IMG/VR virus record: IMGVR_UViG_2706795801_000001 | Location: 69,825-133,824 of that record | Origin: a virus | Lineage: Duplodnaviria; Caudoviricetes | Strand: one strand, 5' to 3' | Length of the DNA: 64,000 bases | Shown: positions 20,066-24,449 of the stretch, piece by piece | Position numbering within the stretch: the stretch's first letter is position 1 | Layout: every line of letters starts with the position of its first letter | The notes under the pieces: model-generated | The model's database searches: none | The model's input: only the letters and a program-made list of their open reading frames with translations | What the model was told of the DNA's origin: nothing | Position numbers and translations under genes: made by a program

Positions 20066-23000
20066 ATGTCAGAAGAAATCACCAAGTATGTAGTGGAGGC
20101 AGAATTTGATTCCGCTAAAGCTACAAAAAAGTTGGATGAGTTTAATAAGAAATTAACGTCTTATTCCAAAGCTCAGAACAACTTTAGAAAGAATAAAATG
20201 GGTATGCAGAGGGTTCTAGATAATACCAGAAAGCATAAGATGCTAACGGATGTTGTTAAGACGCCTCAGATAGCTAAATTGAAACCTCCAACATCACCAG
20301 TTAATAGATTAGAAACACTATCAGGTAAAGAGAAGGTACTACCTAACCTATATAAGTATAGTGAGGCTTCTTTAAAACGACAAAGTGAATACTTAGATAA
20401 GATTAAAGATAAGAAGGTGAAACTATCTTATGTTAATAATCTAAATAAACAAGAGCGAAAGGTCAAGTTAGATAACAAAATCCCCTCAAGACAGAAGGTA
20501 GCTGTTAGTGTCAAAACTAAAACCCCTACCAAACGTTTAGAGTCTAAGACTTCCAAAGTAAAACCTGTACCAACCTTAGACAGAAAAATAAGGATACTTA
20601 GTAAGGTAAAAGATAGTAGGGTTAACGAGAAAGACCAACCCAAACCTAGTAGATTACAAACACTAAAATCTAAAGAGAAACTATACCCAAACCTATATAA
20701 GTATAGTGAAGATTCTCTTAAGCGGCAAAGTGAATACCTAGCTAAGTTAAAAGATAAGAAGGTTAAATTAGATTTCATCGACAATCTTGACAAGGTAAAG
20801 AAGAGATTAAAATCCTTAAATAGACAAAAGACTAGGGAAGTGCCTGATAAGATTAGTAAAGTAGTGGGTTCAGATAAGAAACCTTTACAGAAAATCAATA
20901 CTATCAAGGAAAAGGTGGTCAAAGTAGGTAAATCCCCTAAACAGCCTATGCTAAATGCCCATCACAAGGAACGTGAGAAGTATTTAAATAAAGAGTACAA
21001 GAACAAGGTTAACAGGGAAAGGAGTTTAAAGTCTGCACACATCTTGGCTATCAAAGAAAACATTAAGTTTGATAGGAAAGCAGCAGAAGCTAAACGAAGC
21101 GAAGCAAGTAAACCAGATGGTATGGATACTCATCTTAAACAACGTGAGAAGTATTTAGATAAACAATACAAGAAACAGTTAAGTCGAACTAAAGAGTTAA
21201 AAGCGGCACATGTAGCTGCTATTAAACAGAATATTAAGTTTGACAGACAACGGAAGATGGCTGCTGCTAAGGTTAAACAACCTGCTATTATGAAACCTGC
21301 TGATGCTCATGTGAAAGCTAGAGAGGCTAGTATAGTTCAAGCTAATAGAAAGGAAACTCGTAGGAAGTCTAATCTAGGAGTCGCCAAAACATCATTTGAT
21401 AGGTCTGACTTAAACCTAACTCAATATACTGACGCAAGACAACTTGCAGCACAAGCAGCACTGAGGGAGTCTATAGCGCAAGCTAAGACTGCTGATGAAG
21501 TCAAGATGATAGTTGCAACAGAACATAAACGCCTAAGAGTAATGAAGCAGAATGAGCGCTCTATGGGTAAGCAGAACTACCTGATGCAACGTATGAACGC
21601 ATCCAGTAAACAGTTTACAAGTAACATGTTCTCTGCATTCGCCATAGCTGGTGCTGGTGCTGGTATTACTAGAATAGGACAAGACTTCGAAGCAGTAAAT
21701 AACACCATGTTGGCAGTAAGTACTAATACGCAAGAAGCAGGATCTAACTTTAAGTTTGTTAGAGATGAAGCTTATAGGTTAGGACTAGGACTTGCAAACA
21801 GTGGTAAGAACTTTGCTAAGATGTTATCTGCCAGAGGTAATATGAGCCTAGAGGATACAAAGAAAGCCTTCACAGGTATTTCAGAAATGTCTACATTGTT
21901 GGGGTTAAGTGCAGAAGAAAGTACAAGAGCTAAAGTTTGTGGCTCCTTTTAATAGTAATGTTAAATGTAAAATCTTTTTAATTGCTGGGACACCCACTTT
22001 ATGGTGGACAATCAGCAGGGACGTTAACGTAAGTTAACACCTTCAGAGACTAACCCGTTAGGGTGTAGATTCTACTTAGAATCGAAAATAAGAAATCCTT
22101 TTAGGATTAAGATATAGTCCACAGACAAACGCTTTACAACAAATAAATCATTGTTTGGCTTCATAGAAATGTGATGAATAATTAAATTTATGAATTCGGT
22201 GGATCTCCTAAATGGAAGTAGGACAATACCGAGCGAAGCCTCGAAAGAGGAACGTGTAAAGACTAACTCGTAAGAGTGTAGGGGACGATACTATATCCTC
22301 GAAGCGTAAATAACCTGAACATTAAGTTGAAGGTTAAGATATAGTCTGAACTTCTATAGTAATATAGAGCGTATAATACGGAGTAAGTCATTGATTTACT
22401 TAACAATTTTGGATGAGTAAAGGAGTTGTATCGGCTAAATCCTTGGCCTTTTAACTAGCGATAGTTATCAATAATTCATTTAATTGCTGGAACCTCTCAT
22501 ATGAGACAATCAGCAGGGAAGACTACTCGTAGTAACCTCCAACGACCAACCGTTATCGGTGTAGATTCTAAGTAGAGTCGAAACAGTGAAAACCTCTAAG
22601 GAGGTTATGATATGGTCTAGCCCTATAGTGATATAGGTTATATCTAAAGACTTTGATATAGTGACTCTTAACGTAAGTCATTGATTTAACTAGAGGAATT
22701 AAAGCTTCAAATGGGTAAACTTTGCCCAGTATAAAATTATTTAATTGCGAGAAGCCTTAATGCTTGTGACAGATGATGTATTTATGGTATCATTGTTGCA
22801 GGTGAGATGGTAATTCGCAGGGAAGACCCACCACCTCAAAAGAGGAGTGTGTTGATATTATGAAAGCTATAGAAGAATTTCCAAATTACTTTATTGATGA
22901 AAGCGGTAATGTGTTTAATAGTAGAGGGGTTCCAATTAAATCCCAATTAAATATAGATGGTTATAGGGTAGTAAACTTATATTCAAACAAAAAATATTAT

Positions 23001-24449
23001 CATAGACGATGTGCTAGGATGGTAGGTTTGACACATCTAAAAGACACATATGAAGAAGGTTATGTAATAAATCATAAAGATTTTGACAGAACCAACGACC
23101 AAATATCAAATCTTGAATGGATAACATCCCTAGAAAATAACTTGCATTCCATAGAAGGACAACCCCACCTACACACAAGGGGATCTAAATATGACGAAGA
23201 TTTTATAAGAGGTGTTTGCCAGATGATCCAAGATAATAAAAACAATAAGTATATCATGGAACAAACCAAGGTAACAAAAGATACACTATTACACTTACGT
23301 TGTGGTGCCACTTGGACTTGGATATCTAAAGATTATATATTGACTCCTTCAAAAAGAGAATGGTGAGTAACCTCCAGAGACTAACCCTAACGGGTGTAGG
23401 CACGAGTGTGTCGAAATGGTAATCACATTTATGTGAAGATATAGTCCGATACCCAATGAAAATTGGGATATAACTCTTAACGTAAGTTATTGAAAACATT
23501 AAAGGAAGTTTTGCCCAACGCCATACAAATTATGGCAAAATCCGCCCAAGACGCAGGTCTAACATTAGATGGTACTGTAAAATCTATGATGGACTTACAG
23601 CAAAAAGGTGGTTTAATATCTGAAAAGGTATTACCTCATTTTGCTAAAAATATGTCAGAGGCTGCTCGTGCTAACGGTGGTTTAGATAAGGCTTTATTAT
23701 CTAACCGTGTTGCAATGAACAGGTTCATGTTCTCTATACAAGAAGCTGCTGATATTGTATTCAAGTCTGGATTCGCTTCTGGGCTGACAGAGTTGTTCAA
23801 TACAATGGCTGAATCTATTGTAGACTTAAAACCCTTATGGGAATCTTTAGGCACAATAATGGGTTCATTGTTTAGGTTAATTGCAGACGGTGTTAAATAT
23901 ATTACTCCACCACTTATTTCTATGGGTAATGTACTAAAATCTATTACCTCAGCTTTAGGTGACAACTACTCTTGGTTACTATTGACCTCATCTGGTGCAA
24001 TGGTACTATATAGAACCATAGATAAATTAGGTGGTCTTAAGTTCTTTGCAATGAGAACACTGCCAATGGTTGGTTTATTAGTCATGGCGTTAGACGCAAT
24101 CAAGCAAGTAGCTTTTTGGGCAGAAGAGTTAGACAATTTATTATTTTCTAGAAATAAGATAGGTGTATTATATGATCCTAGGACTGGTGTGAATACAGAC
24201 TCAGTTATAGATGAATTAATACCACTATTGACCTCTATCAGTTCAATAAAAAATCAAGTCAACGCTGTGTCTTCTGGTAATATGATGGGTGGTGCTAAAG
24301 GTTTAGAGGCATTATTTAATGCAAATAATAAACCTGTTACGGTGAAAGGTAACGTATATATTGGAGAGGAAAAGGTTGGTGACATAATGGCTAACAACTC
24401 TGCAATTAAAGATACTATCCAAGCTGAAATAAAGAAAATACAAAACTAA
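20066..24449 (+). CDS. Tape measure protein, spliced: join(20066..21931,22125..22144,22412..22436,22693..22716,23505..24449), 959 aa
   Basis: Between chaperone and baseplate genes. Joined exons give LGLSAEESTRA-TNALQQM-MSKGVVSA-EELKLQMG-EVLPNAIQIMA, the conserved tape-measure motif; 2880 nt in frame. Confidence 0.9.
21932..22124 (+). ncRNA. Group I intron 1 (IA2-like), 193 nt, no P9
   Basis: P1 GAGCU/GGCUC with U.G; P10 GUUUGU/ACAAAC; P AAUUGCUGG, Q AAUCAGCAGG, R CAGAGACUAA, S AAGAUAUAGUCC; P7.1/P7.2 hairpins; ends in G. Confidence 0.85.
22145..22411 (+). ncRNA. Group I intron 2 (IA2-like), 267 nt
   Basis: P1 CAAAU/GUUUG; P10 UCAUU/GAUGA; P4 UCGGU/ACCGA; R AAAGACUAA; S AAGAUAUAGUCU; P9 with GUAA loop; terminal G at 22411. 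Confidence 0.9.
22437..22692 (+). ncRNA. Group I intron 3 (IA2-like), 256 nt; 3' end at A22692 (alternative G22695)
   Basis: P1 GGCU/GGCC; P10 UCCUU/GAGGA; P AAUUGCUGG, Q AAUCAGCAGG; compensated P7 GACCA/UGGUC; P9 with GUGA loop. Confidence 0.85.
22717..23504 (+). mobile_element. Group I intron 4 (IA2-like), 788 nt, HNH ORF in the P6 loop
   Basis: P1 GGGU/GCCC; P10 AAACUUU/GAAGUUU; P AAUUGCGAG, Q AAUUCGCAGG; R CAGAGACUAA and S AAGAUAUAGUCC lie downstream of the ORF; P9 with GAAA loop; terminal G at 23504. Confidence 0.9.
22860..23366 (+). CDS. Intron-encoded HNH homing endonuclease (I-HmuI/NUMOD4-like)
   Basis: FPNYFID.SG.V, DGY..VNL, INHKDFDRTNDQISNLEWIT..EN..H; GAGGAG RBS. Confidence 0.9.
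   Translation: MKAIEEFPNYFIDESGNVFNSRGVPIKSQLNIDGYRVVNLYSNKKYYHRRCARMVGLTHLKDTYEEGYVINHKDFDRTNDQISNLEWITSLENNLHSIEGQPHLHTRGSKYDEDFIRGVCQMIQDNKNNKYIMEQTKVTKDTLLHLRCGATWTWISKDYILTPSKREW

Follow-up and report, generated by a model that had tools for sequence, protein, structure and literature searches.

A group I intron without a P9 domain in the tape measure gene of a phage closely related to Shewanella sp. phage 1/40

Introduction

How can a group I intron bring its 3' splice site to the active center once the whole P9 domain is gone? The question is raised by a short intron, intron 1, that interrupts the tape measure gene in a 64,000-nucleotide (nt) stretch of Caudoviricetes DNA (positions 69,825 to 133,824 of IMG/VR record IMGVR_UViG_2706795801_000001), hereafter the window, whose first letter is position 1. 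P9, P9.0 and the L9-P5 contact are treated as universal group I architecture and as the means by which the 3' splice site is chosen, and a review lists P9 within the catalytic domain (PMC3984707). An initial annotation of the window described, at 21932-22124, a 193-nt group I intron lacking the entire P9 domain, and the analysis reported here followed up that description. As judged from comparison with its relatives, intron 1 is confirmed as a real, conserved P9-less variant of the group I intron. We propose that it is probably a working intron of subgroup IA and a member of a small natural family, fixed between ..STRA and [T/V]NAL.. in an essential tape measure gene, from which the whole P9 domain was lost long ago.

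Results

Intron 1 (21932-22124; all features given here are on the plus strand) separates exon 1 of the tape measure gene (20066-21931, 622 codons, delimited by the open reading frame (ORF) list and the end of the tblastn alignments, and named tape measure protein in the annotation of phage 1/40) from exon 2 (22125-22144, 20 nt, encoding T N A L Q Q and two thirds of an M). The Rfam group I model RF00028 matches window 21921-22129 with 58.2 bits (E 3.5e-12, gathering score 50), which together with direct reading bears out the length and the missing P9 of the initial annotation; the copy of phage 1/40 scores 57.3 bits and that of the Logan contig L002 47.5 bits, slightly under the threshold. 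After the last P7 pair only A22121, C22122, A22123 and G22124 remain, and the RF00028 alignment deletes the P9 columns. This tail of A-C-A and the terminal omega-G (22121-22124), standing in for J7/9, P9.0, P9 and extensions, is the ACAG that had been placed between the S element and exon 2, and it reads A(C/U)AG in all six sequences of the family. As just three nt separate P7 from omega-G, P9.0 cannot form; intron 1 thus has neither P9 with its L9-P5 contact nor P9.0, and P9 is likewise absent from all six family sequences. The tail of 4 nt is to be compared with 64, 74 and 57 nt after P7 in introns 2, 3 and 4 of the same gene, which do carry the GNRA-capped P9 described for them (L9 loops GUAA, GUGA and GAAA, respectively).

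The 5' splice site lies directly after U21931. The two intron 1 splice sites are fixed because homology, the U.G pair of P1, the terminal G and P10 all define them. tblastn alignments of uninterrupted homologues stop exactly at 21931 and restart at 23505, and 26 uninterrupted homologues read across the insertion site (site 1) as STRA-[T/I/V]NALQQMMSKG. P10 consists of 6 base pairs (bp), GUUUGU at 21935-21940 with ACAAAC at 22125-22130; the proposal that frame and this helix set the 3' splice site is upheld by the homologue alignment, the six sequences and a compensatory change within P10. A shift of both splice sites by one base, which the A at both boundaries allows, was rejected as the U.G pair and the terminal G would be lost. 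The predicted spliced junction of exons 1 and 2, at 22124/22125, reads ..AGAGCU followed by ACAAACGC...

Apart from the missing domain the core is complete, with P3, P4, P5, P6, P7 and P8 all present, including the P3/P7 pseudoknot. P1 pairs GAGCU (21927-21931) with GGCUC (21941-21945), places U21931.G21941 at the 5' splice site and is invariant in the six sequences; within the internal guide (21935-21945) the P10 guide GUUUGU stands directly 5' of the P1 3' strand. It is followed by the P2 hairpin (21948-21965, 7 bp), with the GNRA loop L2 GUAA at 21955-21958 (GGAA in L002), and by the P3 5' strand (21973-21979), which pairs with 22087-22093 as UCUU.UU with AA.AAGA. P4 (UGCUGG/UCAGCA, 21983-22017) encloses P5 (CCAC at 21994-21997 with GUGG at 22004-22007), which is short, 3-4 bp, in every lineage, and this would fit its co-loss with the L9 partner. 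The P6/P6a hairpin (22018-22042) has three compensatory pairs and a loop that is GUAA in the window and varies among relatives. The P7 5' strand (22046-22052), G-(A bulge)-GACUA, is invariant. Between it and the P3 3' strand lie P7.1 and P7.2 (22053-22083; ACCC-GUUA-GGGU and GAUUCU-ACUU-AGAAUC), with three compensatory pairs, the insertion that assigns the intron to subgroup IA (IA2-like, as in phages). The P8 hairpin (22094-22108, AAUCC/GGAUU) is the same in all six sequences and leads through J8/7, AAGAUA, to the P7 3' strand UAGUCC at 22115-22120 (together 22109-22120). G22046 and G22048, flanking the bulged A22047, pair with C22120 and C22119. The guanosine-binding pair would accordingly be G22048-C22119, which we assign by what we take to be the equivalent Tetrahymena pair, G264-C311 beside bulged A263.

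RNAalifold and the minimum-free-energy fold also returned a 10-bp helix between 21935-21944 (GUUUGUGGCU) and 22116-22126 (AGUCCACAGAC), across the 3' splice site. We rejected it as a functional element because it competes with P1 and P7, is interrupted in lineage c, where it has three wobbles and an A.C mismatch, and is the expected product of folding that is blind to pseudoknots. Being weak in lineage c the helix is probably incidental, but it could represent an inactive conformer.

Relatives with the same insertion, with or without P9, were sought from homologous proteins truncated at the site, which led to contig L002, and by pattern scans of IMG/VR and JGI metagenomes. Six distinct P9-less sequences at the same codon were found in three lineages, 181-194 nt long, all inserted after ..GAGCU (following ..STRA) and all ending UAGUCC-A(C/U)A-G. 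Lineage a comprises the window and phage 1/40 (193 nt), lineage b L004 and L005, each also present in JGI contigs (192 and 194 nt), and lineage c L006 and L002 (181 nt). A P9-bearing intron at site 1 was not found: among the 43 homologous proteins only P0001 and P0004 stop there and both carry the P9-less intron, and ten further IMG/VR loci read straight through. Searching bacterial and archaeal genomes for family members gave no match, and blastn against 50,697 phage records returned only phage 1/40 and a weak 77-nt core match to introns of Bacillus phage DNA polymerase genes.

The canonical structure, with P7 and P10 treated as pseudoknots, was counted on the alignment of the six sequences (alignment A1; 60 pairs, 352 cells). 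Paired cells made up 98% of the total, as compared to 37-46% with the partners slid, and the covariation score was reached by none of 500 shuffles. Eight pairs show compensatory change, one in P3, three in P6a, two in P7.1, one in P7.2 and one in P10, while P1, P4, P7 and P8 never vary; in P3, pair 51/172 is formed by U-A in lineage a but by C-G in the other two. All 6 bp of P10 are paired in every sequence (100%), with one G-U change and one compensatory pair, 17/207, which is G-C elsewhere and A-U in lineage c. The helix thus changes from GUUUGU/ACAAAC to GUUUAU/GUAAAC and the exon codon from ACA (Thr) to GUA (Val), a substitution also found in uninterrupted homologues. Exon 2 in addition shows a synonymous TTA/TTG difference between lineages. 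Identities of intron and flanking exon are 99.5 and 98.4%, about 83 and 77%, and about 77 and 70% for the deepest pair. As the intron identity tracks that of the exons, the P9-less state arose before these phages diverged and has been kept since; on the evidence of these alignments it is old and under selection.

One comparison concerns recent movement. The two ORF-less copies of lineage c (L006 3535-3715 and L002 5096-5276) are 98.3% identical, whereas identity falls to 88.4% over the adjoining 450 nt of exon 1, which suggests recent lateral movement of intron 1, possibly by co-conversion during homing of a neighboring endonuclease-bearing intron.

The window shares about 99% identity with Shewanella sp. 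phage 1/40 (KJ018211), a myovirus from Baltic Sea ice, of which the window phage is probably a sister isolate. The locus is a tail module with the order sheath, frameshifted chaperone, tape measure, and P2 gpU/gpD/gpV-like genes, and its tape measure gene appears in the ORF list as two ORFs, 20066-21952 and 23490-24449. RF00028 matches four times between them, with 58, 78 and 69 bits and a sub-threshold 27 bits around an HNH ORF. The exon model was derived by tblastn with the 43 homologous tape measure proteins, most of which carry PF20155 and some of which are named tape measure protein. Following exon 2 it places intron 2 (22145-22411), which is canonical, scores 78.4 bits and ends with the P9 and 64-nt tail described above; exon 3 (22412-22436, 25 nt); intron 3 (22437-22692 or 22437-22695); exon 4 (24 nt, ending at 22716); intron 4 (22717-23504), which contains the HNH ORF at 22860-23366; and exon 5 (23505-24449). 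Joined, the exons form an open frame of 958-959 amino acids, reading ..STRA, TNALQQM, MSKGVVSA, (E)ELKLQMG and EVLPNAIQ.. in succession, and this reading equals homologue P0002 residue for residue. Exon 2 serves two introns, its nt 1-6 (ACAAAC) being the P10 strand of intron 1 and nt 16-20 (CAAAU) the P1 strand of intron 2.

Intron 3 appears to end with A22692 rather than with a G. The start of exon 4 is placed at 22693 since both P10 (UCCUU/GAGGA) and the SAEELKLQ of the homologues put it there; the alternative start at 22696, after G22695, would cost one conserved Glu. The tails of introns 2, 3 and 4 (22381-22411, 22664-22692 and 23472-23504) share the motif ..CUUAACGUAAGU(C/U)AUUGA.., their cores differing, and intron 1 is without such a tail. 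The GenBank record of phage 1/40 (L001 1567-5949, corresponding to KJ018211 93217-97599) lists a 'tape measure protein', a 'homing endonuclease HNH' and a 'hypothetical protein', with zero introns annotated. This 'hypothetical protein' is tape measure exon 5, and the locus should be read as a single gene of about 959 codons with three introns (four in the window), not as two unrelated coding sequences.

Lineages a and b and L006 all carry the same site-2 intron 20 nt downstream of intron 1. L002 lacks an intron at site 2 and instead carries a different one, with P1 GAUGAGU at its 5' splice site, inserted after ..QQMMS and 27 nt downstream of intron 1; over intron 1 itself, L002 and L006 share 98.3% identity. 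The conserved tape measure motif STRATNALQQMMSKGVVSAEELKLQMGEV (window 21925-23510; L002 5090-7000) is a hot spot for introns: in homologues, interruptions fall at six or more sites within about 70 coding nt (after RA, QQ(M), MMS, SA, EEL and QMG), and L002 has five introns there, with five Rfam group I matches. Close neighbors are therefore expected in this region anyway, and introns 2 and 3, whose neighbors are equally close, have kept P9.

The hot spot also differs between near-identical phages. Window 22436-23503 and the corresponding segment of phage 1/40 (L001 3937-5003) are wholly different, whereas the flanks are about 99% identical on both sides. Introns 3 and 4 of the window, inserted after ..SA and ..QMG, respectively, fall in this interval; their place in phage 1/40 is taken by a single intron with an HNH ORF, which lies at a third site, after ..SAEE(L), and has its 5' splice site directly following GAAGAGCU. 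The difference is a presence/absence polymorphism of introns. The P1 of intron 1 (GAGCU/GGCUC, exon strand 21927-21931) is the same as that of the site-3b intron of phage 1/40 (L001 3943-3947), both exon sites reading ..GAGCU. One guide could recognize both sites, and reverse splicing is a possible route by which an intron might move between them.

Discussion

We propose that intron 1 would splice by the usual two steps, attack of guanosine triphosphate (GTP) after U21931 and exon ligation at G22124, with omega-G brought to G22048-C22119 by a 3-nt tether instead of P9.0 and the 3' exon held by P10 alone. The proposed guanosine pair sits one pair from the end of P7 where the tail exits, and a 3-nt linker could fold omega-G back into the major groove, in which case P9.0 would not be needed. 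The lost L9-P5 clamp may be dispensable in the IA scaffold or may be compensated in vivo, and the GNRA loop of L2 together with the invariant P8 may preserve the L2-P8 contact. Single loss of either P9.0 or P10 has been reported to be tolerated and loss of both not (PMC11417360); from this result P10 is predicted to be indispensable in intron 1, in agreement with its strict and compensated conservation. As the 3' splice site leaves the polymerase right after P7, before intron 2 has been made, a specific partner is probably unneeded. A stronger form of the proposal, that these 181-194-nt RNAs are autonomous self-splicing ribozymes performing both steps without P9, P9.0 or L9-P5, with omega-G positioned by the tether and the 3' exon by P10 alone, is tentative and may hold almost as readily as fail. 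We know of no natural self-splicing group I intron as short.

Several points weigh against a working P9-less intron. The guanosine site would have to lie within reach of a 3-nt tether. With only three independent lineages sampled, the covariation statistics are thin, being supportive rather than conclusive. Engineered P9 deletions in other introns reportedly impaired them (Caprara and Waring, 1994). No near-identical spliced or intron-less tape measure protein was found, and a search with exon 5 for longer proteins returned nothing above 62% identity. All six copies have another group I intron 20-27 nt downstream, so that autonomy has never been seen in nature. Finally, P9 has been called essential (PMC3873408), and the domains of the intron are linked through two contacts, L2-P8 and L9-P5 (PMC2813881), of which intron 1 has lost the second.

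It is conceivable that a protein or cellular helper, be it an RNA chaperone, the translating ribosome or a phage factor such as the HNH protein of intron 4, replaces the L9-P5 clamp, although we consider this unlikely. In other group I introns the very contacts in question, L2-P8 and L9-P5, are known to be stabilized by proteins such as Mrs1 (PMC2813881), and splicing of T4 introns is described as translation-dependent in vivo by Sandegren and Sjoberg (2007), as cited in PMC8541194. The phages that host intron 1 are cold-active, and low temperature may well hinder RNA folding. However, the intron has no candidate factor that co-occurs with it; the endonuclease ORFs downstream are different in the window, phage 1/40 and L002. 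The core helices show good conservation and thermodynamic stability (z = -3.15). In addition, HNH proteins are, to our knowledge, not known as maturases.

We find it still more doubtful that intron 1 is a crippled ribozyme needing help in cis from the adjoining downstream intron, whether as a surrogate P9, as a folding scaffold or through a set order of splicing. A further group I intron does follow downstream in every member, at a distance of 20 nt (site 2) or, in L002, of 27 nt, and exon 2 provides both the P10 strand of intron 1 and the P1 strand of the next intron. The neighbor itself, however, is not conserved, L002 combining a 98.3%-identical intron 1 with an unrelated intron at another site and with another P1, and no covarying pairing between introns 1 and 2 was seen. 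Moreover, in a hot spot neighbors are expected, and introns 2 and 3, equally close to theirs, keep P9. Assistance from intron 2 was among the options raised in the initial annotation; the closeness of the two introns stands, whereas a specific partnership is weakened by the nearly identical L002 copy beside another intron and, from these comparisons, appears unlikely. A general effect of whichever intron lies 20-27 nt downstream, as distinct from that partnership, is conceivable.

That intron 1 is a decaying, non-splicing relic, with the tape measure function coming from separately translated fragments as in the phage 1/40 annotation, is highly improbable. GenBank does list two separate coding sequences, and a TTG at 23490 could start the second ORF. 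But the micro-exons of 20, 25 and 24 nt code for precisely the residues that uninterrupted homologues have, and they vary synonymously; compensatory changes occur across the ribozyme, the phages are viable isolates, and each homologue is a single polypeptide. A deletion made in assembly or sequencing, the former named by the initial annotation as a finding that would overturn its description, has virtually no chance of explaining the missing P9. The same tail recurs in the genomes of two isolates as well as in metagenome and Logan assemblies obtained independently, with differences at other places in the intron, and no point was found in favor of such a deletion.

The working P9-less intron proposed here resembles known phage IA2 introns (T4 td, nrdB and sunY/nrdD, orf142 of Staphylococcus phage Twort, SPO1 DNA polymerase) in P1-P8, P7.1/P7.2, the U.G pair, omega-G and P10, in the R and S elements (..CAGAGACUA.. 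and AAGAUAUAGUC) and in residing in a protein-coding phage gene; it differs from them in that they have P9 with L9, P9.0 and often P9.1/P9.2 and measure about 250 nt or more, whereas the intron 1 family has 4 nt instead and measures 181-194 nt. Twort orf142 is said to hold several introns and very short exons in one gene, as here (Landthaler and Shub, 1999). The sibling introns 2-4 belong to the same subgroup, gene and hot spot, and introns 1 and 3 have cores of 70.7% identity and an identical P4, yet unlike intron 1 they have a GNRA-capped P9 and 57-74 nt after P7.

A core ending near P7/P9.0 reportedly still carries out guanosine-dependent chemistry, as in the sunY 'miniribozymes' of Doudna and Szostak (1989), the sunY core of Xu and Shub (1989) and the Tetrahymena P9 deletions of Caprara and Waring (1994). 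These minimal ribozymes were made in the laboratory and in general are impaired or perform the first step only, whereas intron 1 is natural, selected, and must ligate exons in an essential gene. The usual textbook example of a compact group I intron is the Azoarcus tRNA-Ile intron, which is about 205 nt long and of subgroup IC3. Like intron 1 it is compact, ORF-less and of bacterial or phage origin, and it relies on GNRA loop contacts; it has, however, both the L2-P8 and L9-P5 tetraloop contacts (PMC2813881) and P9.0, while the intron 1 family is shorter and has no P9.

The model of the trans-spliced rnl intron of Prasinoderma mitochondria (PMC3873408), a natural group I intron, likewise lacks P9. 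Its authors regarded their own P9-less model as very unusual and suspected a third RNA piece or accessory factors (PMC3873408). Unlike intron 1, that intron is split, organellar and of subgroup IB, and it was described without a conserved family. Our literature search for a published natural P9-less self-splicing phage intron found none, and gave only the Prasinoderma case and engineered systems. The terminase introns of phages 1/4 and 1/40 are mentioned in PMC8541194, and tape measure introns are not; ribozyme structure is not analyzed in the crAss-phage intron paper.

What sets this system apart is a tail of the shortest possible length, a host-phage pair that can be cultured, and siblings with P9 in the same transcript that serve as internal controls; the natural variants supply a ready compensatory pair in P10 and two different downstream neighbors. 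For the design of RNA circularization, too, short self-splicing cores have practical interest. A long-standing natural loss of P9, P9.0 and L9-P5 in an essential gene would mean either that the group I core needs less RNA than has been assumed or that a hidden compensation exists. If intron 1 and its relatives indeed splice autonomously, the P9 domain would be dispensable for a natural group I active site.

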